Source: Candidatus Hodarchaeota archaeon
GTDB taxonomy: Archaea; Asgardarchaeota; Lokiarchaeia; Sigyniarchaeales; SOKP01
Assembly (NCBI GenBank): GCA_048887225.1
Contig: JBHLJY010000016.1
Coordinates: 1-49,964 of the forward strand
DNA: 49,964 bases
Direction of reading: 5' to 3'
Part shown: positions 39,005 to 49,964 of the stretch, piece by piece
Numbering within the stretch: position 1 is the first letter of the stretch
Layout of the letters: every line of letters begins with the position of its first letter
Position numbers and translations under genes: made by a program
The notes under the pieces: model-generated
The model's input: the letters and a program-made list of their open reading frames with translations, nothing else
Databases searched by the model: none
Told to the model about the DNA's origin: nothing

Positions 39005-41767
39005 ATGGAAGGATCTGTATTGGTAATTGGAGGAGGTATAGCCGGGATACAAGCATCCTTGGATCTGACGGATTTAGGATTTAAAGTTTACTTAGTAGAG
39101 AGAAATCCATCAATAGGTGGTCGTATGGCTCAATTTGATAGATTATTCCCTGCTACCGACTGCAGTTTATGTGTTCTCACTCCAAAAATGGTTTCTATAT
39201 ATAGGAATCCAAATATTGAATTGTTTACTCTAACGGAAGTTAAAAAAGTATTAGGAGAACCAGGGAATTTTATAGTTACTGTGATTAAGAAGCCAAGATA
39301 TATTGATGAGACAAAATGCAGAGGATGTGGGGATTGTGCTGCTAAATGCCCGAAGGTGGAAGCTCCAAATATTTTTGATATGAATTTAGGGAAAAGAAAA
39401 TCTATATATCTTCCATTTCCACAAGCAACTCCTCCAGTATATTTAATTGATCCTGAGTTGTGTTTATATCTAAACAGAGATGTATGTGGAGTATGTCAAA
39501 AAGTCTGCAAAGCTGGAGCTATAGATTATGAACAAATACCCCAAGAAATAGAATTAAAAGTTGGAGCTATTGTAGTTGCTACAGGATTCGAGATGCTTGG
39601 GGAGGAATTGCCATCAAGATGGGGTTATAAGTATGAAAATGTTGTTAATGGATTAGAATATGAAAGAATTTTATGTCCCACTGGTCCCTTTGGAGGTCAA
39701 ATTTTACGACCAAGTGATATACAAATACCTGAAAAGATAGCTTTTATTCAATGTGCTGGTTCTGGATATTTAGAAAAAAGCGTACCGTATTGTTCAAGAG
39801 TTTGTTGTATGTATACAGCAAAAAATGCAATTCTTACAAAAGAAAGGTATGAAGATATTCAAATTTCTATATTTAGACATAATATTAGAGTGTTTGGAAA
39901 AAACTTTTATGAATATACTAAATCAGCTCAAGAGGATTACAATATAAGATATCAAAATGCAACAATTAAATATATTAACGAAGATCCAGAAACTAAAGAC
40001 ATAATTATTAAATATGAAGATTTAAAAACAGGAGAGAGAAATAAAGAATTTCGGGCTAATTTAGTAGTATTGGCTGCTCCATTGGTTCCAGCTAAAAGTA
40101 CTGAAGAATTAGCAAAAATATTAGGTATTAAATTAGATTTTAATAAATTTTTTAAAGAAGCATCTTATTTTAATAAATCCTTATCTACAAGAAAAGGAAT
40201 ATACTTATGTGGATTTTGCCAAGGACCAATGAATATATCGGAGACTGTGGTGAATGCAAGCGCAGTGGCAGCTCAAGTTGCTATATTATTGAGTTCTGCT
40301 AAATTTACTCAAGTTAAAGAGAGAGAAAGTGATATCCTACCAAAGAAAGAAATTATAAAGATTACTCCTCGGGCACTAATCATTGGTGGTGGAGTTTCTG
40401 GGATGACAGCAGCACTAAATATTAATAATCAAGGCTTCGAAACGATAATTGTGGAAAAAGAAGAAGAACTAGGTGGTAATTTAAAATATATTAACATTCT
40501 ATATCCAATACGCCAAAAGGCTGAAGCCTTTCTAAATAACCTTCTAAAAAAAATTGAAATGAATGAACGCATTCATGTATATTTTAACTCAAAAATTAAA
40601 AATGTTTCAGGCTCAATTGGTAATTATGATATAACTATAGTAGATTCAAATAAAAATATTCAAAATTTCAAAGTTGGAACAATTATAATCGCAACTGGAA
40701 GTCAGGAATTTAAACCACGTGGAATATTTCAATATAATCCAAATAATAAAAGTATTTTGACTCAATTAGAATTGGAGCAGCGTCTTAAAAATAACGACAC
40801 ATCATGGCTTGACAATTTAAAACATATCACAATAATTATGTGTGTTTATGCGAGATACAAGTTCGGGTTACGTTATTGTTCTAATGTATGTTGCAGTAAT
40901 ACTATTAAAAATATTGATATTTTAAAAGAATTAAAGCCAGAACTTGAAATCGTAGTCCTCTTTAGAGATCTTCACATGGCTAAAAAGGAGTGCGAAGAAA
41001 TGTGCAGAGAAAGAAAAAAAATTGCTAATTATCTAAGATACAATGTAGAAAATATTCCAGAAATTACGAAAATTAAAAACAATCCAGAGAAATACGCTAT
41101 TATATTACAGAACGATTTAAAACCAAATGAATATATAAATTTTGAAACAGATCTTATAATTTTATCAACTCCAATGATTCCATCTGAGGGTTTACAAGAA
41201 TTAGCAAATATATTAAGTGTTCCGTTAGATGAAAATGGATTTTTTATAGAAGCTCACACAAAATTACGACCATTAGATTTTGCAGCACATGGGATTTTCA
41301 TATGTGGTTGTGCTCAATGGCCAAAAAATGTTCAAGATTCAATAGCAGAAGCAAATGGCGCAGCAGGAAGAGCAAGTAGATTCTTAAGTATCAAAGAGAT
41401 ATCAACAACAAAATTGGAATTTCTTTCATTTATGCTTTCTATCGAGTGCTTCTTTAAAGACATGGTCATTAATATTGAAAAGTGTAATGGTTGCGGAAGA
41501 TGCGTAGAAGTTTGTTCTTTTAAAGCAATCAATCTTGTTGATATGAAGAAAGATTTTGAAGATATAAGTCTGCCCATTAAAAAGGCATTTATAAATCCTG
41601 CGATATGTAAAGGGTGTGGGAGGTGTGCAGCAACGTGTAGGTTAAAAGCAATAGACGCAAGACATTACGACTTTAAACAAATTTCTTCAATAATAGATCC
41701 ATATTTTTTAGAAAGAAAAATGTCAAAGGAAGAAAACGAAGAACAACCTTTATTTTCCGTTTTGTAA
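39005..41767 (+). CDS. hdrA: HdrA-family paralog lacking the internal CHC/CTPRTHE module
   Basis: N-terminus nearly identical to the 35058 ORF; two GGGxxG motifs; shorter central region. Confidence 0.9.
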   Translation: MEGSVLVIGGGIAGIQASLDLTDLGFKVYLVERNPSIGGRMAQFDRLFPATDCSLCVLTPKMVSIYRNPNIELFTLTEVKKVLGEPGNFIVTVIKKPRYIDETKCRGCGDCAAKCPKVEAPNIFDMNLGKRKSIYLPFPQATPPVYLIDPELCLYLNRDVCGVCQKVCKAGAIDYEQIPQEIELKVGAIVVATGFEMLGEELPSRWGYKYENVVNGLEYERILCPTGPFGGQILRPSDIQIPEKIAFIQCAGSGYLEKSVPYCSRVCCMYTAKNAILTKERYEDIQISIFRHNIRVFGKNFYEYTKSAQEDYNIRYQNATIKYINEDPETKDIIIKYEDLKTGERNKEFRANLVVLAAPLVPAKSTEELAKILGIKLDFNKFFKEASYFNKSLSTRKGIYLCGFCQGPMNISETVVNASAVAAQVAILLSSAKFTQVKERESDILPKKEIIKITPRALIIGGGVSGMTAALNINNQGFETIIVEKEEELGGNLKYINILYPIRQKAEAFLNNLLKKIEMNERIHVYFNSKIKNVSGSIGNYDITIVDSNKNIQNFKVGTIIIATGSQEFKPRGIFQYNPNNKSILTQLELEQRLKNNDTSWLDNLKHITIIMCVYARYKFGLRYCSNVCCSNTIKNIDILKELKPELEIVVLFRDLHMAKKECEEMCRERKKIANYLRYNVENIPEITKIKNNPEKYAIILQNDLKPNEYINFETDLIILSTPMIPSEGLQELANILSVPLDENGFFIEAHTKLRPLDFAAHGIFICGCAQWPKNVQDSIAEANGAAGRASRFLSIKEISTTKLEFLSFMLSIECFFKDMVINIEKCNGCGRCVEVCSFKAINLVDMKKDFEDISLPIKKAFINPAICKGCGRCAATCRLKAIDARHYDFKQISSIIDPYFLERKMSKEENEEQPLFSVL

Positions 41768-41890: not shown

Positions 41891-42124
41891 TTAAGTTTTT
41901 AAAATTTTCAATGCTTTATCAATTGTTAAATTTTTTAATTTATACGCTTTTTCATAATGTTCCGAACAGAACCACTCAGCATAGGGTGGATGTCCTACCA
42001 TTCCTTCTCTTTCCATAGTTTCGTCCCATTCAATATCAGAAGAACGCTTTTTAAAATATATTAAGCCACCATCATCCTTATCCATAAAATTTTTATCGCA
42101 TATAGCGCATATTGGAGGTCTCAA
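41891..42124 (-). CDS. Small Cys/His hypothetical protein
   Basis: PPICAIC...GHP...WFCSEH; 16 nt downstream of the GH31 gene. Confidence 0.7.
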   Translation of the reverse strand: MRPPICAICDKNFMDKDDGGLIYFKKRSSDIEWDETMEREGMVGHPPYAEWFCSEHYEKAYKLKNLTIDKALKILKT

Positions 42125-42140
42125 AAAATCATCTCTTGTT

Positions 42141-44117
42141 TTATTCTATATTTTTTATTTGTTCAAACAACTCTGAAAATTTTGAATTTATCCTAAAAAA
42201 TATTGGGGGTTGACCTATAGGTGCATTTACTTTTCTCCACCCTTTTTTATATTTTTCTCCAGACCAAATATGAATCCAAATATCGTCTGGAAAATATACC
42301 TTCCATTTATTTTTATTCGGTTTAATGACCGGAGCAATAAGTAAATCGCTTCCTAATAAAAATTGATATTTAATATGATGAACTTCAGAGTCATTTTCAT
42401 AATGTAAATACAAAGCCCTTATTAGTGGATAACCATTATTTTTATATTCATTAGAAAGATGCTTAAAATAAGGTTTTAGATGTACATAAATTTTACTCAT
42501 CTTTGCAAAATGTTCAAGGCATTCATCATCAGAATCAAATTGCCAGTTCAAATCAGGATTAACACCCTCATGAGATCTCATAACAGGACTGAAAACTTCC
42601 AATTCAGCCCAACGCATAAATAGTTCTTTATCGCGCCTAATTTCTTTAAAAGTGTGAAAACCGCCGATATCTGTATGGAAATATCCTATACCACATATGC
42701 CTAATGAGATTCCAGCAGGTATTACCGATGCTAATCCATCATCTATACTCCAATTTACGAGTTGATCTCCTGCCCAAACTAATGTTGTATACTTGGAGAT
42801 TCCAGAATAGCCTGCTCGAGTAAAAAACACAATTTCTCCTATTTTATTAGCTTCTTTAATAGCTTCATATATGGTTTTTGCCCAAATCACAGGATATTTA
42901 TTATGGAAAAGCTCTAGATCTTCTCCAGAAGATAAAACCGCATCAATAGGGAGATATTCACCATAATCTGCCATCCAACCATCTAAACCGATATTGATCA
43001 TATTTCTTTTTATTAATAATTTCAACCAATCAATCGCTTTGCTATTTGATAAATCAATCATAGTTGCTTTTTGACTATCAGTTCGAACATCATAATCATT
43101 TCCTTCTTGATCTTTTATGCAAAAACCTTTTTTTGAAGCCACCTTAAATTGTTCACTATCCATAGCTAAGAATGAATTAATATATCCAAGAAATCTGATT
43201 CCCTTTTGTTTCAATTTTTTTATGAAGGATGGTAAATCTGGATAAATTTTATTATCATATTCCCAATTCCACAATAAACGCTTGCCTGAAGGCATCATGC
43301 GGATCCCTTGCCAATCTTGGCACCATACACCAGCAATTTTAACACCTTTTTCGCCTGCTTGATTTATTTTTTGTTCTACAATATCAGTTCCGCCTTGTAT
43401 TCCTAGCCAAACTCCATCATACACCCAATCAGGCAATTCTGGTTGCCGACCTAAGTAATCAGATAATTTATTTACTACTTCAAGAGCAGTATCAAATTTA
43501 CCAATTATAATTCTTTCAGGTATACACCATATATATAACTCATGAAAATCTTCATTGTCAAAGTTAAATTTTGAATAACTTGTTGCTAATACATGACAAT
43601 AATAATTATTTGAAGATACAAATGTAGGCTGAGGATAATATGTAGTATACCAATCCCCTGTTATAGGTGGCGAACCCCTTCCAATTCCTTGTTCTTCTAC
43701 CCACAAGGGAACTTCTTTTCCCCTTAAATTCAATTCTGAATATTGTTCCCCACATCCATATATTGCTTCATCATATTGAGCTGGGATTTTTATCCAAAAT
43801 CGATTTATTTGTTTATTTGAGCACTCTGGTTTTATAATTAAAAAGCTACCTGAATCAACTAGAGAAACGTTCAATTCCGCTTCTGAAGAGAAAAATCTGA
43901 GTGATATTTTATTTTCAGATTTAGATATTATTTCATAATTTTCTAAATTGAATTCATTTTTTAATTTCTCTTTAATTCTAAAATGACCATAATTGCTTTT
44001 ATAGCGAGCTGTGCCAATCCCTATCTTAAAACATGGTTGATTTGAAACATGATGTAAAATTAAATAATCTTTATAAAAGAAGTTAAAACCGTCTGATAAA
44101 ATTTCAATTCGAATCAT
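42141..44117 (-). CDS. yihQ: GH31 alpha-glycosidase, sulfoquinovosidase (YihQ)-like
   Basis: GCGEQYS, YYPQPTFVSS, LGIQGG, QDWQG...GKRLLWNW, GWMADYGEYLP (nucleophile), WAGDQ (acid/base), MRSHEG. Confidence 0.8.
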   Translation of the reverse strand: MIRIEILSDGFNFFYKDYLILHHVSNQPCFKIGIGTARYKSNYGHFRIKEKLKNEFNLENYEIISKSENKISLRFFSSEAELNVSLVDSGSFLIIKPECSNKQINRFWIKIPAQYDEAIYGCGEQYSELNLRGKEVPLWVEEQGIGRGSPPITGDWYTTYYPQPTFVSSNNYYCHVLATSYSKFNFDNEDFHELYIWCIPERIIIGKFDTALEVVNKLSDYLGRQPELPDWVYDGVWLGIQGGTDIVEQKINQAGEKGVKIAGVWCQDWQGIRMMPSGKRLLWNWEYDNKIYPDLPSFIKKLKQKGIRFLGYINSFLAMDSEQFKVASKKGFCIKDQEGNDYDVRTDSQKATMIDLSNSKAIDWLKLLIKRNMINIGLDGWMADYGEYLPIDAVLSSGEDLELFHNKYPVIWAKTIYEAIKEANKIGEIVFFTRAGYSGISKYTTLVWAGDQLVNWSIDDGLASVIPAGISLGICGIGYFHTDIGGFHTFKEIRRDKELFMRWAELEVFSPVMRSHEGVNPDLNWQFDSDDECLEHFAKMSKIYVHLKPYFKHLSNEYKNNGYPLIRALYLHYENDSEVHHIKYQFLLGSDLLIAPVIKPNKNKWKVYFPDDIWIHIWSGEKYKKGWRKVNAPIGQPPIFFRINSKFSELFEQIKNIE

Positions 44118-44167
44118 CTTCTAACAAATATTATAGATAATCAAATTATATGTTATTAATATATTAT

Positions 44168-45289
44168 TTACCCATTTTTTTTAAAAAATGGAATAATTTC
44201 ATCAGAAATTATCTGTGATACATCCCAATAGGTAAAAGGAGCATTTTTACTCGAAGCACTGTTCCAAATCTCGAAAATAAAGTATTGTGCCCCTGCATCA
44301 ATGTAATTTTGAATTTTTTTAATGATCTCTTCTTTAGTTCCTATCAAGGTATTTTCACGTATCATTTTATCTGGAATCTGGTCATTAATTGTAGATAATT
44401 TATTAATATCAAATTTTCCAACATCTTCCCGGTCAATTTGAAGTAAGCTCATCTCATCGCAGTTATAACCTGTTGCTTCACAATATAATTCGTCAAATTC
44501 GTCTTTCCAAAATCCAAGTTTCTTAATTAAAGAAGGCTGGAACACCCAAGTCATTTTAAGAGCATTAATCTGTTCACTTATTCTCTTTTCGTCATTGTTC
44601 AAATATATGCGGTGGAATACAGCAAAAGTGAATTTATCTATCTCACGACCTTCTTTTTTGATAACTTCAGCAATTTCATTTCGACCTTCCTTAAATACAT
44701 CAGTAATAACACCCAAGGGCATCCAACCATCTGCTATTTCAGCGGTCATTTCCCGAGTTTTTGGACTATTTGCCGCAACCCATACGGGTATTTCTGAAAT
44801 CGGTTTCGGAAGTAATACAGCCTTTTTCGTTTGGTAATACTTACCATTAAACGTTACTCTCTTACCTTTTTTCCAAAATAATTTCATTAATTGGATAGAT
44901 TCCCTCATCTTTCCAAGAGCATGATCGTATGGGATATTGTATGCCTTTAAATTCATCCCTTCACCAGCTCCTATTCCTAAAATAAAATTGCCCCCATTCA
45001 TATGATTAATCGTCGTAGCCATTTGGCCTAAAACAGCAGGGTGATATCTGTGTGGATCAGTTACAGCAGATCCGAAGGTTTTCCCTTTAGTTAATTCTAT
45101 AAATGAGCCGAACATAGGCCATAAGGTTAGAAAATCATCGATTGTACCTCCTGGAATACCACTCAAATGATCAGGCAGCCAGATTGAATCCCAATTTTCC
45201 CGATTAGCAGCTATAATTTTTTTTCTAACAAATTCATAAGAATTGGAATAAAACAATTGAGTTCCAAATTTAATTTCATTATTTAGCAT
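44168..45289 (-). CDS. LLM-class (luciferase-like) oxidoreductase, probably F420-dependent
   Basis: WLPDH, VTDPHRYHPAVLGQ, LGIGAGEGMN, ADGW. Confidence 0.85.
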   Translation of the reverse strand: MLNNEIKFGTQLFYSNSYEFVRKKIIAANRENWDSIWLPDHLSGIPGGTIDDFLTLWPMFGSFIELTKGKTFGSAVTDPHRYHPAVLGQMATTINHMNGGNFILGIGAGEGMNLKAYNIPYDHALGKMRESIQLMKLFWKKGKRVTFNGKYYQTKKAVLLPKPISEIPVWVAANSPKTREMTAEIADGWMPLGVITDVFKEGRNEIAEVIKKEGREIDKFTFAVFHRIYLNNDEKRISEQINALKMTWVFQPSLIKKLGFWKDEFDELYCEATGYNCDEMSLLQIDREDVGKFDINKLSTINDQIPDKMIRENTLIGTKEEIIKKIQNYIDAGAQYFIFEIWNSASSKNAPFTYWDVSQIISDEIIPFFKKNG

Positions 45290-46358
45290 GTTCTTCGAAC
45301 ATTTCCCTGTTTAATTCAACACCTAATCCTGGTTTTTCAATAGCGTTTACAAAACCTTTTTCAACTTGTATAGGTTCTTCGAGAAGTTGATATTCATCAG
45401 GAATAAATGGAAATTCGCACCAATCACACCTTGTTGACATAATAAAATGAAGATTGGCTGCTAGAATGTGCCCAAATCCAAAGATATGAGGAATACAGCG
45501 AACTCCTTTAACTTCTGCCATCGCATCGATTTTTTTTAATTGTAGAAAACCTCCACTACGAGTTACATCGGGTTGAATGATATCAAAGCATCCTCGAGAA
45601 AGAATATCTTCAAAGCGAAATATACCCATATCGTTTTCACCTCCAGCAATTTCGACAGGAGATTTTTCTCTTATTTTAGCTAATCCATTGAGATTATCCG
45701 TAGGGATTGGTTCCTCTAACCAAGTAATATTATGTTTAGCACAAATATTAGCGATTTGAAGTGCCTCATTGACAGATTGATATGCTGAATTAGCGTCAAC
45801 CATGATATCTATATCGGGAAAAGCGTCCCTTATAGCTTCCATTAACGCATCATCTTTATTCGGACCATTTCCGATTCTCAATTTCACTGCTTTAAAACCT
45901 CCCAAATCCAAAGCAGCTTGAACTGCACCCACAGCCGCCTTAGCAGAATATCCCCTAGGCATAGATGCATAACATCGGATTCTTCTTTTCCTCCCTCCTA
46001 ATAATTTATAAATCGGTTGCTTAGTAGCTTTACCAATTATGTCCCAACAAGCAATCATAATTGCGGAGGTTGATTGTGGTATGCCAAACATAATTCGATT
46101 GCTATTTTGATAAAGTGTATGATAGATCTCTTCAACCATAAAAGGATCCTTCTTTAAAACAAGGCTCTTTAAAGCCTCATCGATGAACTGTTTTTGAGCT
46201 AAATTGCTTAAATTCCAATGAGATAAAGCCCAACCATCTATTCCATCATCAGTTATAATATTTGTGTATAATCCAGTTGCTTTAAATCGTGGCATAGAGC
46301 CAATTTTAATTTTAAAATCAAGCTCTAATAAATAAGTTTTAAGATCTATTATCTTCAT
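45279..46358 (-). CDS. Mandelate racemase/enolase-superfamily acid-sugar dehydratase
   Basis: WDIIGK...PIYKLLGG, KxR (KLRIG), metal ligands VDAN/WLEEP/GGEN, QPD, PH. Confidence 0.88.
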   Translation of the reverse strand: MKIIDLKTYLLELDFKIKIGSMPRFKATGLYTNIITDDGIDGWALSHWNLSNLAQKQFIDEALKSLVLKKDPFMVEEIYHTLYQNSNRIMFGIPQSTSAIMIACWDIIGKATKQPIYKLLGGRKRRIRCYASMPRGYSAKAAVGAVQAALDLGGFKAVKLRIGNGPNKDDALMEAIRDAFPDIDIMVDANSAYQSVNEALQIANICAKHNITWLEEPIPTDNLNGLAKIREKSPVEIAGGENDMGIFRFEDILSRGCFDIIQPDVTRSGGFLQLKKIDAMAEVKGVRCIPHIFGFGHILAANLHFIMSTRCDWCEFPFIPDEYQLLEEPIQVEKGFVNAIEKPGLGVELNREMFEEHAK

Positions 46359-46481: not shown

Positions 46482-47492
46482 ATGACTGAATCAATAAAAA
46501 GAGATCCCTTTGAAGGCTTGTATGAGGTTTATTTGCTTTTTTTTGAAGAAACTAAAGGAAATTTTCCGTTTTTTATTTATCCCGATGAAACTATAAAAAA
46601 TAACACAGAAAAGATGCGGCCCATAAATATCCATACTATATGGTGGATGGACATGAAAGATCAAGCAGTAATGGACCATGTAGACCTCGAATATGGTGAT
46701 AAGATGTATATTGCTCGGAAATTCTTGACACTATCAAAAAGGAAAAAAAAAGGAGTGAAATTTGATAATTATACACCTGAAACAATAATCATTATATTAA
46801 CCATACCAAATGATCTATATATTTTTGGAGGAGCCCTCCTTAATCAACTAACAATAAATATTATTAAGAATTTTGAAGGAAAATTATACCACGTAATTGA
46901 ATCCGAAATTGCTAAAGAAAAAATCATAAAAACGCCTGAAATAAAAAAAATTATAGATAAAGGAGATGTTATTAAAGAAAGAATGAAAGATATTGTATTA
47001 GTTACTTGTAAGCACTATTTCTCTTCAGTTATTAAGAAAAATAACCTCAAATCAATAAAACAACAAAAGGCTCTCTCTTATCTTTCTCTGAAGGGAATTG
47101 ATTTTTCTTACTTAGCTAAATGTGTGGATAATGAAGAGTTTTCAAATATTAGATTATTTGATATTAAAATGAAGTCAGAAAATAGATCCGTTCTTAGAAC
47201 ACCATTAACAATTTCAAACGTAAAAATAAATGAAGGTAGTAATGAATTAGAAATAATTGTTCGAAATAAGACTGAAAAAGAACTTAATAATGTTTTAGTG
47301 AAAATAACTCAATTAAAGGAATTCTACGAAAGTGAAATTATGGGTCATAAAATAGATCAATGGTTTCCAGAAGAAGAATTGTTATTTATATCACCAATTC
47401 TACCAAATATCAATGATTATAATTTGTTTATAAAAGATGATGATAATCACTTGCTTTCGAAAAAAATCAATTTTACCATGCCAAAATTTTAA
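46482..47492 (+). CDS. Hypothetical protein, uDENN/longin-like N-terminus plus C-terminal beta-domain (paralog 1)
   Basis: VYLLFFEETKGNFPFFIYP; C-terminal WFPEEELLFISP shared with the next gene. Confidence 0.7.
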   Translation: MTESIKRDPFEGLYEVYLLFFEETKGNFPFFIYPDETIKNNTEKMRPINIHTIWWMDMKDQAVMDHVDLEYGDKMYIARKFLTLSKRKKKGVKFDNYTPETIIIILTIPNDLYIFGGALLNQLTINIIKNFEGKLYHVIESEIAKEKIIKTPEIKKIIDKGDVIKERMKDIVLVTCKHYFSSVIKKNNLKSIKQQKALSYLSLKGIDFSYLAKCVDNEEFSNIRLFDIKMKSENRSVLRTPLTISNVKINEGSNELEIIVRNKTEKELNNVLVKITQLKEFYESEIMGHKIDQWFPEEELLFISPILPNINDYNLFIKDDDNHLLSKKINFTMPKF

Positions 47493-47593
47493 AATCACTG
47501 TCCAATTTTTAATAGCTTTGTAGTTTTAGTCTTTTATAATTTCGAATTTTTGTTTTATAGTTAATTTTTTAGGAGAAGTAATATTATTTTCTC

Positions 47594-48664
47594 TTGCTTA
47601 AAATGGCTAATCCCAGAAACGATGATTCATTGGAAACTAAATCATTGGAAGAAATTCTACAAGAAGAATTATGTGTAGTTTATGTTCTATATTTCGACGA
47701 AGCTAGTGGTCATGTTCCGCTCCTCATTTTTCCAATAGAAGAAAAACAACTAAAACAGAATAAACGCTTCATGCGTCCTATTAAATATCATCCTGTTTGG
47801 TTTCTTTCCGTTGAAGAACAGGAACCACTTGATCACATTGATCTTGAATTTAAAGGCTATACTTTTTTTGGCAAAAAATTTTTAACTAAATCTATGAGAA
47901 AAAAAAGACGGGCCGGCCTTGAGGAAGAGACTCCTGAAACGGTTGTTGTAATTGTATCTCTGTCAAATGATATAGCGATATATGGGGATCAACTAATACA
48001 TTTAATGACAGACGAAATTCGATCTAAATTCGATGATAAATTATTTAGAATTATAGAGTATGAAGTCGTTAAAGACCAAGTTATCAAAACCCCTAATGTA
48101 AAGAAAATAATTGAAGAGGGCATAAAAATAAAAGAAGATCTTAATAATTTGATACATAACATTACTGAAAATTATTTTTCCAAATCATTAAGGCAAACAG
48201 ATACAGTTTCAATAAAACAGCAAAAAGCTCTTTCATACCTGGCTTTAAAAGGGATTGATGTGTCATCTATAGGTGGTATACAAAAACGTGATACTTTTTC
48301 AAATATTAAATTATTTGAACCATCAAAAGAAACAACAAATGAATTAGCCCTAAAAGCATCTTTTATTTTTTCTAATGTTTCACTAATTGAAGATAGTCAA
48401 GAATTAGAAATTACAGTGCGAAATAATACAGGAAGAGAAGTAAAAGATGTTATTATAAACATTACCCATGTAAAAGAATTTTTTGAAAAAGAACTAATGG
48501 AGCAAGAAATTGATTTATGGTTTCCTGAGGAAGAATTATTATTTATTTCACCTATTATTCCTGGTATTAGCGAGTATCTTTTCTTCATCACGAAGAAAGA
48601 AAATAAAGAGAAATTACTTTCAAAAAAAATTGATTTAAAAGTATTTAATAAATCTAAAATTTAA
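47594..48664 (+). CDS. Hypothetical protein, uDENN/longin-like N-terminus plus C-terminal beta-domain (paralog 2)
   Basis: VYVLYFDEASGHVPLLIFP; tandem paralog of 46482 (MRPI, DHxDLE, SIKQQKALSYL). Confidence 0.7.
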   Translation: MLKMANPRNDDSLETKSLEEILQEELCVVYVLYFDEASGHVPLLIFPIEEKQLKQNKRFMRPIKYHPVWFLSVEEQEPLDHIDLEFKGYTFFGKKFLTKSMRKKRRAGLEEETPETVVVIVSLSNDIAIYGDQLIHLMTDEIRSKFDDKLFRIIEYEVVKDQVIKTPNVKKIIEEGIKIKEDLNNLIHNITENYFSKSLRQTDTVSIKQQKALSYLALKGIDVSSIGGIQKRDTFSNIKLFEPSKETTNELALKASFIFSNVSLIEDSQELEITVRNNTGREVKDVIINITHVKEFFEKELMEQEIDLWFPEEELLFISPIIPGISEYLFFITKKENKEKLLSKKIDLKVFNKSKI

Positions 48665-48682
48665 TAAATTTGGTAAAAAAAA

Positions 48683-49177
48683 ATGTCAAGCTCATTTGTT
48701 AATGAAGACGAAATTATTATCAGAAATTATAGAACATCTGACTATGAAGCAACCTTAGAAATATTACAACAACTTCATAATAAATTTGATATTGGTTTAA
48801 AAGAAAAGCAATGGAAGGAATCTTCTGGTTTACGACAGTTCAAACCAAATCTGAAACGTATAACGCTCATAGCTGAGTTGAAGTCTACTGGAGAAGTTGT
48901 AAGTATGGGGATGCTTGAAGCGGTAAAGAATAATTTAGGCCAATATATTGGTTATCTGGATAATTGGAGTACAAAAGAAGATTATATTGGTAAAGGTGTT
49001 GGTAAAATTCTGGCGGATAGAGCCATTCAAATACTAAAATCATGGGGCTGTACTTCAGTAAGAATTAATATGGGCTATAATGTAAGTGAAAAAGTAATCA
49101 ATGTGATTTGTAAAGGTCAAGGTTTTAAACCCATTCTTATTGTTTTAGAAAAAAGATTTGACGAAAATAACGAATAA
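48683..49177 (+). CDS. GNAT-family acetyltransferase
   Basis: IIRNY...D, DYIGKGVGKIL acetyl-CoA motif. Confidence 0.8.
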   Translation: MSSSFVNEDEIIIRNYRTSDYEATLEILQQLHNKFDIGLKEKQWKESSGLRQFKPNLKRITLIAELKSTGEVVSMGMLEAVKNNLGQYIGYLDNWSTKEDYIGKGVGKILADRAIQILKSWGCTSVRINMGYNVSEKVINVICKGQGFKPILIVLEKRFDENNE

Positions 49178-49355
49178 TAAATAAAATTCTTTTTTTTTGA
49201 ATTAAAGATTGCTTTTTATTTTTAAAGAGATTTATTCAATCGTAAAACTTTTTTACTGATAAAAATCAAAATAAATATTTTTAATCTTTAATTCTTCAAA
49301 ACTATAAAATTAAAATTATAAAAAAATAAAACAAAAAAATAGGTTGAATTTTGAT

Positions 49356-49964
49356 ATGATTGGCATAAAAGCTTATGGTTGTTATTTACCAAGGTATTTA
49401 TTGCCTCGTGAAACAGTTGCTAAAGCTTGGGATTTTCCATCTATGCCAGGTACTAAAGCTATGGCTAGTGTTGACGAAGACAGTATTACAATGGGAATAG
49501 AAGCCGGATTGGACTGTTTAAATGGGATAGACCCTAAAACAATTGATGGCCTTTTCTATGCAACAACAACTCAAGTTTATACTGAAAAAAATTCGGCATC
49601 GTTTATAGCAACTATTTTAGATTTTAAAGAAGATATTACAGCTATAGATTTCACAGATTCATTAAAAGCCGGGACTACAGCTATAATGAGAGCTGTAGAC
49701 ACAATAAAAGCTAATAATGACACTAAAAGTATTCTTGTTATTGCAGCTGATACTAGAGAACCAGAACCAGGGACATTTTGGGAATATGGATTATCTGATG
49801 GTGCAGCAGCCTTACTTATTGCTGAAGAAGATTCATTACCAATCTCGATTGAAGATTACTATTCAGTTTCAGCAAATGTAACGGGTCCTTGGAAAAGAAC
49901 TGGAGATAAATTTATAAGCACTTTCCAAGACAAAATGGATAATAAATTTTATTTTAAGAGTTTA
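49356..49964 (+). CDS. HMG-CoA-synthase/thiolase-like protein (3' partial)
   Basis: Manual translation MIGIKAYGCYLPRY...DEDSITMGIEA...EKNSAS...DFTDSLKAGT...DGAAALLI; the frame runs off the window. Confidence 0.85.
   Translation, partial: MIGIKAYGCYLPRYLLPRETVAKAWDFPSMPGTKAMASVDEDSITMGIEAGLDCLNGIDPKTIDGLFYATTTQVYTEKNSASFIATILDFKEDITAIDFTDSLKAGTTAIMRAVDTIKANNDTKSILVIAADTREPEPGTFWEYGLSDGAAALLIAEEDSLPISIEDYYSVSANVTGPWKRTGDKFISTFQDKMDNKFYFKSL

Follow-up and report, generated by a model that had tools for sequence, protein, structure and literature searches.

A predicted sulfoquinovosidase gene in a variable, probably contracted sugar island of an Asgard archaeon

Four minus-strand genes in an operon-like block

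The window analysed here, a 49,964-nt stretch of DNA from Candidatus Hodarchaeota archaeon, is the entire contig C16 (JBHLJY010000016.1) of a 3.27-Mb genome in 49 contigs, which has an estimated completeness of 98.3% and lies 1-2 Mb below the size of most of its relatives. Four open reading frames (ORFs) follow one another on its minus strand, encoding an enolase-superfamily protein (45279-46358, 359 aa; Pfam MR_MLE_N and MR_MLE_C), an LLM-family oxidoreductase (44168-45289, 373 aa; Bac_luciferase, PF00296), a glycoside hydrolase family 31 (GH31) protein (42141-44117, 658 aa; three GH31 domains and the NCBIfam model PRK10426) and a small Cys/His protein of 77 aa with a CxxC ... CxxH pattern (41891-42124, TTG start). 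An initial annotation, made from the sequence alone, had read this block as an F420-linked operon for sulfosugar catabolism, in which the GH31 enzyme would release sulfoquinovose, the LLM enzyme oxidise it with reduction of F420, and the enolase-superfamily enzyme dehydrate the resulting sulfogluconate.

The four-gene layout described there, with its families and spacing, is reproduced exactly by the ORF list of the window and by the junction sequences. The enolase-superfamily and LLM genes overlap by 11 nt (45279-45289), the ATG of the LLM gene lying within the ...CAT GCT AAA TAA end of the enolase-superfamily gene; a 50-nt AT-rich gap (44118-44167) separates the LLM stop from the GH31 start, and 16 nt (42125-42140) separate the GH31 stop from the TTG of the small-protein gene. 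The best matches of the enolase-superfamily, LLM and GH31 proteins are all to Promethearchaeota (Loki-type Asgard) genomes.

A predicted YihQ-family sulfoquinovosidase

Few organosulfur compounds are as abundant as sulfoquinovose, whose breakdown has, to our knowledge, so far been characterised only in bacteria. The GH31 protein of the window scores 844.5 bits against PRK10426, the E. coli YihQ model (cut-off 553), over residues 3-657, and its full length can be aligned with E. coli YihQ (5aed, E 1.7e-205; 8r56, E 5.7e-212) and further with the solved relatives 6pnr and 5ohs. It has the same three-domain architecture as YihQ and GH31 subfamily 13 (5aed/5aee/5oht, 8r56, 6pnr, 5ohs/5ohy) and shares with them both catalytic Asp residues, both Gln, the Arg and the Trp: a residue-wise alignment to 5aed places Q262, Q288, R301 and W304 (E. 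coli numbering) in the window protein, whose motifs read LGIQGG, and CQDW and KRLLW for the last three residues, together with the nucleophile D405 and the acid/base D472 (WMADYG and WAGDQ). No N-terminal signal sequence was obvious on reading the translation. Judged by these features, the gene is predicted to be an intact and genuine YihQ-family sulfoquinovosidase gene.

The claim that the protein is YihQ-like and keeps the Q, Q, R and W of the QQRWY sulfonate motif is therefore borne out, with the qualification that the fifth residue, which the initial annotation left unmentioned, is changed. Tyr508 of the Q/E-RWY set, which recognises the sulfonate (PMC12780224), is a Phe in the window protein, where DIGGFH stands in place of DIGGYT. 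In an alignment of 76 sequences the Phe-His pair replaces Tyr-Thr in the window GH31 and in eleven more Asgard sequences in which the Arg is kept, and once metagenome sequences are included it is found in 35 of the 36 Arg-keeping members of the Asgard clade, so that E. coli YihQ with GGYT differs here from most of that clade. Because most Phe-His GH31 genes are located in sulfosugar operons of the sulfo-TAL type, we take Phe508-His to be a variant of this clade whose pocket would still work, not a loss of function.

In a separate, large branch of the YihQ-like GH31 proteins, the sulfonate-binding Arg301 is replaced by Gln (FGKQLxWNW; 35 of the 76 aligned sequences). This variant occurs at L015, L019, L020, L022, L025, L047 and L112 and at many bacterial loci (L018-L082), and many of the Asgard Gln-variant genes still lie directly after an SftI-like isomerase gene.

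Genomic context of the GH31 gene across related genomes

We collected loci from species-representative genomes for the LLM gene (5 loci), the GH31 gene (80) and the enolase-superfamily gene (80), called and clustered their ORFs, and added 80 further GH31 loci with 9-kb flanks from a metagenome scan. Adjacency was compared over about 158 full-length GH31 genes on genome and metagenome contigs. Phyletic distribution was scored in 161 genomes of the class and is given as counts, not probabilities, because kinship makes the genomes non-independent.

The usual Asgard context of the GH31 gene is a 222-aa TAL_FSA transaldolase, a 438-aa isomerase, the GH31 and often a homologue of the small Cys/His protein, in that order; the sole NCBIfam match of the 438-aa protein is the sulfoquinovose isomerase SftI (NF048012, 236 bits). 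Among the approximately 158 GH31 genes, no LLM gene was found within about four genes of GH31 beyond the window itself, and neither an LLM nor an enolase-superfamily gene was present in the 9-kb flanks of the 80 metagenome loci. At the loci of the closest relatives of the window GH31 (72-73% and 68% identity), an isomerase gene mostly precedes GH31. An enolase-superfamily gene was seen near GH31 at two other loci: at L118 the GH31 directly follows it and is split across two frames, and at L112 the GH31 lies 5 kb away on the other strand.

The phyletic counts agree with this picture. The GH31 gene is present in 51/161 genomes and the operon-type isomerase in 45/161, with both in 40/161. The LLM orthologue occurs in 33/161 genomes and accompanies GH31 in only four of them (4/161; 4 of the 51 with GH31), as against 29 of the 110 genomes that have no GH31. 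The enolase-superfamily gene, found in 79/161 genomes, coexists with GH31 in 33/161 and occurs without it in 46/161; it is shared by 14/161 genomes with the LLM gene, that is, by 14 of the 33 that have LLM, the other 19 lacking it. GH31, LLM and enolase-superfamily genes come together only in G000, G048 and G049, which make up one genus. The direction is clear: the companion of the GH31 gene across genomes is the isomerase, not the LLM gene. The adjacency on which the F420-linked operon had been proposed is not conserved, an outcome that the initial annotation had itself named as refuting its proposal, and neither is the co-occurrence of its three genes outside that single genus.

Phylogeny of the GH31 proteins, inferred with FastTree from 159 sequences, is in line with these results. 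The window GH31 is nested in an Asgard clade whose members sit in operons of transaldolase, SftI-like isomerase and GH31, and when gene contexts are marked on the tree, an LLM gene within about four genes, and an enolase-superfamily gene as well, appear only at the window GH31. The deepest member of its immediate subgroup, at locus L187, has the canonical Tyr-Thr and belongs to a cluster of transaldolase, a 292-aa protein, a Mem_trans transporter, isomerase, GH31 and MFS_2, and this sulfo-TAL set stands directly beside the same conserved block that flanks the enolase-superfamily gene of the window. We take transaldolase-isomerase-GH31 to be the ancestral setting of the window GH31.

The small Cys/His protein has no Pfam or NCBIfam family match, and its Atlas matches are only to unnamed clusters, mostly from Promethearchaeota. 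At L014, L015, L016, L017, L053, L075, L194-L198 and L201 a homologue with 56-71% identity is encoded immediately after GH31 or no more than a few kb from it, which makes the small protein a recurrent downstream partner of Asgard sulfoquinovosidase genes.

Genomes that have GH31 and lack the isomerase (G043/L008, G046, G047, G013-G015 and L184) were inspected as well. Their GH31 neighbours comprise GH3, MFS_2, an MTTB methyltransferase, a phosphatase-like protein, an AMP-binding enzyme and unassigned proteins, with no recurring dehydrogenase or dehydratase, and the idea of an alternative sulfoquinovose route encoded near GH31 found no support at these loci.

The enolase-superfamily gene and the variable sugar island

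The enolase-superfamily protein has both domains of its superfamily, three carboxylate metal ligands and the His-Asp base of the mandelate racemase subgroup, and K159-x-R161, D188, E215, E241, D264 and H291 are invariant in 58 orthologues. It scores 173 bits against the NCBIfam model of archaeal arabinonate dehydratase (AraD; cut-off 650) and 141 bits against that of gluconate/galactonate dehydratase (cut-off 750), reaches the cut-off of no characterised dehydratase (equivalog), and has 4ggb/4hpn as its best solved relative. From its sequence the protein looks like an enzyme of the acid-sugar dehydratase or lactone cycloisomerase type; the dehydratase assignment made earlier thus holds for the complete set of acid-sugar-dehydratase residues and falls short at the cut-offs of the named enzymes.

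Wherever it occurs, this gene almost always lies by the same divergent block. In the window that core block spans 46482-49964 on the plus strand (families F2, F3 and F4) and encodes two paralogous family-less proteins, a GNAT acetyltransferase and the start of a thiolase-like/DUF35-type protein; it is context, lying outside the sugar genes. Elsewhere the divergent neighbours (the two paralogues, GNAT, thiolase-like/DUF35 and a thiolase) are kept in 45-55 loci, and what lies downstream of the enolase-superfamily gene varies: GH2, GH4, GH3, a sulfatase, MFS, an SNF2 helicase with a SWIM protein, an M24 peptidase, a PLP enzyme and others. What stays fixed at the edge of this variable sugar island is the enolase-superfamily gene, a syntenic landmark.

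Two kinds of tight same-strand follower recur after this gene at other loci. A family-less 228-aa protein follows at gaps of 0-16 nt in six loci (L127, L134-L137 and L139), and an M24 creatinase/prolidase-type peptidase at gaps of 20-50 nt in four (L114, L116, L122 and L138); these followers may tell more about the real substrate of the enolase-superfamily protein than the window does.

The two congeners of the window genome that carry all three genes, G048 and G049, keep them in one order and on one strand over about 30 kb in total: core block, enolase-superfamily gene, 7 kb, LLM, about 20 kb, transaldolase, isomerase and GH31. The 7-kb interval encodes a methyltransferase, a Bax1-I-like protein, an enoyl-CoA hydratase, MFS, an FeS protein and a molybdopterin oxidoreductase, and the 20-kb interval GNAT, MFS_2, MBL, GH2, several others and six tandem MFS_2 genes. 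Because these congeners keep the same order and strand, the order in the window can be described as that of the shared island minus the intervening genes. In another genus the enolase-superfamily gene and the operon of transaldolase, isomerase, GH31 and small protein lie 14-21 kb apart on one contig and strand, with no LLM gene. On contig L268 the LLM gene takes the place of the enolase-superfamily gene after the core block and is followed by GH2 at 73 nt, implying that other deletion outcomes exist in the same island.

The six tandem MFS_2 (GPH) paralogues of the congeners (G048:C3 at about 526-582 kb, L167-L169; G049:C275, L174) stand directly upstream of transaldolase-isomerase-GH31.

In the sister genome G050, whose DNA is 92% and 86% identical to the flanks of the block, contigs end inside the small-protein gene and inside the enolase-superfamily gene (C15, 37886; C12, 40046), and the island between them is unassembled. 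Since both block edges are contig ends there, G050 neither confirms nor contradicts the arrangement of the window; its contig breaks hint at strain-level variation in the island region.

The LLM oxidoreductase

The ten best NCBIfam matches of the LLM protein, and most of those listed, are F420-dependent LLM subfamilies, and the protein stays below every listed cut-off (best match, the Mer model PRK02271, at 106 bits versus 276). Its matches to SsuD-type models are weak (41 bits versus a cut-off of 518), the models of FMN-type sulfonate monooxygenases scoring far lower. Among solved structures, its best relatives are Adf (1rhc), FGD2, FGD1 and Mer. The motifs PDH and GAGEGMN are present, the latter matching GAGEAMN of Adf, and H41 and E110, invariant in 25 family members, align with PDH and GxGE of 1rhc and 5lxe. 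A structural model built from the 25 family members (pLDDT 89.2) returned F420 enzymes as its 17 best Foldseek matches, at about 20% identity; with Adf (1rhc), FGD1 (3b4y/3c8n, 5lxe), FGD2/fHMAD (9fp4) and Mer (8qpl, 1z69) it shares the TIM-barrel at a target-normalised TM of 0.75-0.85, and with Adf and FGD the His41 and the Glu110 of the GAGExxN motif. The phosphate-binding K197 of Rhodococcus FGD aligns with Val in what is a weak alignment, the other two pocket residues falling outside its alignable part.

Cofactor biosynthesis genes are encoded in the genome, with CofD at 307 bits (cut-off 257) and CofH at 445 bits (cut-off 374). Orthologues with 55-75% identity come almost only from Asgard sources and bear generic or automatic names. 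The LLM protein is thus predicted, from its sequence and modelled fold, to be an F420-type oxidoreductase of an Asgard-restricted family, and the resemblance to F420-dependent glucose-6-phosphate and alcohol dehydrogenases seen in the initial annotation is upheld; it differs from Adf, FGD and Mer in being only about 20% identical, about 40 residues longer and below the curated cut-offs.

The neighbourhoods of the LLM gene elsewhere are heterogeneous, with at least four unrelated settings, and a search across them for a consistent partner gene found none in common. It stands beside glycoside hydrolase genes of three families: GH2 four times, GH57 nine times and GH31 once.

Two of these settings are conserved in their own right. 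In genus g11 (L172, L277, L280-L284 and L286) LLM orthologues lie in a block with two 955-aa P-type ATPases, GNAT, one or two LLM paralogues, a DUF362 protein and an AMP-binding enzyme, and a second conserved setting places the gene between GH57 and DHQ synthase II, near an Snf7/ESCRT-III gene. Within the genus of the window (L094/G048, about 13164-16012 of L094) the LLM gene is divergent from genes for a 763-aa molybdopterin oxidoreductase, a 4Fe-4S subunit and an MFS transporter, all three of which are absent from the window. The genome encodes four LLM paralogues (C21:32002-32835, C9:12939-13922, C6:94921-95835 and the window gene at 44168-45289), none of which is a canonical Mer by TIGR03555 (best 152 bits versus a cut-off of 349).

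Candidate routes for sulfoquinovose in the genome

We found no complete recognisable route after the glycosidase in the assembly. A close homologue of the operon-type isomerase is absent from it, as are a dedicated sulfofructose transaldolase, a homologue of the 292-aa gene of the L187 cluster and a KDPG-type aldolase (PF01081). The only TAL_FSA gene encodes a housekeeping FSA/TalC (311 bits versus a cut-off of 246), which is 40% identical to the operon-type enzyme and lies in a pentose-phosphate operon with transketolase. There is one weak aldehyde-dehydrogenase-family match, unlinked to the block, and a second DHDPS-family protein, likewise unlinked, that is encoded beside a TrmB-like sugar regulator and an FGGY kinase. 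Many GPH/MFS_2 transporters and TauE-family exporters are present.

A distant SftI-family paralogue of 470 aa (C3:137338-138750; L264:4339-5751) scores 94 bits on the sulfoquinovose isomerase model and is 25% identical to the operon isomerase. It was considered as a specific replacement isomerase and is ruled out in that role by its spread, since it is found in 104/161 genomes with or without GH31.

Origin of the gene block and alternative explanations

We favour, with a probability of roughly 0.6, a reading in which the block is a contracted variable sugar island holding an orphan, intact sulfoquinovosidase gene and its small Cys/His partner. The ancestral island would have carried, on one strand, the enolase-superfamily gene, the LLM gene and then a sulfo-TAL-type set of transaldolase, isomerase, GH31 and, optionally, the small-protein gene. 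Loss of what lay between, isomerase and sulfo-type transaldolase among it, would then have left the enolase-superfamily, LLM, GH31 and small-protein genes as an operon-like block in this small genome; the direction of this change is our inference. On present evidence the packing of the enolase-superfamily, LLM and GH31 genes is a juxtaposition and not a system, most likely a one-off product of gene loss. Sulfoquinovosyl glycosides such as sulfoquinovosyl glycerol would be imported, possibly by GPH/MFS_2 transporters, and then hydrolysed by the GH31 enzyme in the cytoplasm, with the aglycone usable by the cell. As to what the organism does with the sulfoquinovose itself, we infer that it is probably released, or else handled by enzymes not identifiable in the assembly, and the LLM and enolase-superfamily proteins would act on their own substrates, independently of sulfoquinovose.

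Several observations weigh against this account. The junctions are very tight, which fits random deletion less easily and suggests co-transcription, and the 11-nt overlap of the enolase-superfamily and LLM genes is the tightest same-strand junction after the enolase-superfamily gene at any Asgard locus seen. The GH31 gene and its small partner are intact though their usual partners are gone, so that some use of the product is likely. The window GH31 belongs to the clade with R, W, F and H, and the GH31 proteins of G048 and G049 to the Gln-variant sister clade, at 52% identity, from which it follows that the history was not a simple double deletion. The isomerase is recorded as absent from an assembly that is still in 49 contigs. 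Lastly, a role connected with sugars is conceivable for the LLM gene, which stands by glycoside hydrolase genes in several arrangements unrelated to one another.

That assembly also gives some footing to the idea that a sulfo-TAL-type route persists, either with its genes in unassembled sequence or with their roles taken over by the C3 SftI paralogue and FSA/TalC. An L187-like Mem_trans transporter gene is cut by the end of contig C40, the island falls between two contig ends in G050, so that the region evidently assembles poorly, the C3 protein does register on the isomerase model, and FSA/TalC is at hand. We nevertheless hold this to be unlikely, given the completeness of 98.3%, the occupation by the LLM gene of the usual isomerase position directly upstream or a few genes from GH31, the low identity of the C3 paralogue and its spread regardless of GH31, and the pentose-phosphate surroundings of FSA/TalC. 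A chimeric join of two regions in a population-variable island is far less probable still: the contigs of G050 do break exactly at the block edges, inside the small-protein and enolase-superfamily genes, but the reading frames run cleanly through all junctions of the window, the gene order matches that of the congeners and there is no step in composition.

The pathway put forward in the initial annotation could survive as a lineage-restricted, F420-dependent variant of the sulfo-Entner-Doudoroff (sulfo-ED) route, in which the LLM enzyme would oxidise sulfoquinovose, the enolase-superfamily enzyme dehydrate sulfogluconate or its lactone, and the unlinked DHDPS-family protein act as the aldolase. 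The operon-like packing with its 11-nt overlap speaks for such a pathway, and the parts are suggestive: an F420-type fold with the Adf/FGD-like His and GAGExxN in a genome whose CofD and CofH exceed their cut-offs, a full set of metal ligands with the His-Asp dyad in a protein whose best named matches are aldonate dehydratases and a lactone cycloisomerase, a DHDPS-family gene by a TrmB-like regulator, TauE-family exporters, and no other recognisable sulfoquinovose route in the assembly. Set against them are an adjacency that is unique among some 158 GH31 genes, the depletion of the LLM gene in GH31 genomes (4/51 versus 29/110), the 19 of 33 LLM genomes without the enolase-superfamily gene and the 46 genomes that have the latter without GH31, LLM neighbourhoods elsewhere that are unrelated to sulfosugars, the Val, in a weak alignment, at the position of FGD K197, and the lack of a linked aldolase, lactonase or C3-sulfonate enzyme and of any PF01081 aldolase in the genome. 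All the comparative tests spoke against a dedicated role. On balance we regard such a route as distinctly unlikely, and we give as little credence to its corollary, that the LLM and enolase-superfamily enzymes were recruited for sulfoquinovose after the loss of isomerase and transaldolase, with F420H2 passing to the Hdr/FrhB machinery; from the sequence comparisons the pathway appears unsupported rather than disproved. There is likewise only a slim chance that the LLM enzyme serves adjacent glycosidases in general, as an F420-dependent dehydrogenase of the sugars or aglycones they set free, and is not specific to sulfoquinovose. GH2 lies 73 nt after it in L268, GH2 and MFS_2 genes are near it in G048, G049 and L002, GH57 is beside it in nine loci, and its motif is Adf/FGD-like; its orientation to GH57, however, is not fixed, another conserved context (that with P-type ATPases, GNAT, LLM paralogues, DUF362 and an AMP-binding enzyme) contains no glycosidase, and no partner gene is consistent across contexts.

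Comparison with described sulfoquinovose pathways

In the sulfo-TAL/sulfo-SFT pathway of Bacillus/Priestia and gut Firmicutes, the transaldolase SftT/SqvA and the isomerase SftI/SqvD act together with the sulfoquinovosidase SftG, which is the gene company of the relatives of the window GH31. The window and its genome differ in lacking the operon-type isomerase and transaldolase, the glycosidase and its small partner remaining; compared with GH31 subfamily 13 at large, the host is archaeal and the genome is without all known downstream sulfoglycolysis genes. The sulfo-ED pathway of Pseudomonas putida SQ1 uses an NAD+-dependent SDR sulfoquinovose dehydrogenase, a lactonase, an IlvD/Edd-type sulfogluconate dehydratase, a KDSG aldolase and a sulfolactaldehyde dehydrogenase. 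The chemistry proposed in the initial annotation is the same (oxidation at C1, dehydration, cleavage), but none of these enzyme families is found in the window block, where the putative dehydrogenase is an F420-type LLM protein and the putative dehydratase a member of the enolase superfamily; an aldolase, a lactonase and an aldehyde dehydrogenase are not linked to the block, and its clustering is not conserved.

The sulfo-SMO pathway of Agrobacterium tumefaciens has a GH31 sulfoquinovosidase clustered with SmoC, an FMNH2-dependent LLM monooxygenase related to SsuD, and is the one described system known to us that clusters a sulfoquinovosidase gene with an LLM-family gene. In contrast to SmoC, the window LLM protein fits the F420 subfamilies far better than the SsuD type; the organism is an Asgard archaeon of anaerobe type, and neither a flavin reductase nor a 6-oxo-glucose reductase is linked in the window.

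The remark in the initial annotation that this combination of enzymes was undescribed agrees with our literature search: none of the papers searched connects the degradation of sulfoquinovose to F420 or to Asgard archaea, and a paper on the Asgard glycoproteome mentions sulfoquinovose for Sulfolobus only. The locus adds one predicted Asgard sulfoquinovosidase, an archaeal member of a known enzyme family. It is also a cautionary case, in that a tight and plausible "operon" in a metagenome-assembled genome dissolves when about 150 related loci are compared, and the comparison points to transaldolase and isomerase as the true partners of the Asgard GH31. Were the F420-dependent sulfo-ED route to prove true, no earlier sulfoglycolysis would have depended on F420, and none in archaea would have had a chemistry of its own.

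Genes flanking the block

On the opposite strand, FrhB, HdrD-like, HdrA and MvhD genes lie beside the cluster and converge on it, the HdrA-like gene (Pfam) spanning 39005-41767 on the plus strand. The initial annotation had suggested that F420H2 could feed this adjacent FrhB-Hdr cluster: the genes are indeed there, but they are convergent and on the other strand, and the HdrA-like gene stands at a synteny breakpoint, without a conserved link to the sugar genes. Beyond GH31 in the congener G048 and in G043, other genes are found, for example one for an MTTB-family methyltransferase. On the far side of the enolase-superfamily gene, the two adjacent paralogues of the core block (46482-47492 and 47594-48664) have no Pfam families and recur in the conserved block by that gene at about 55 loci.

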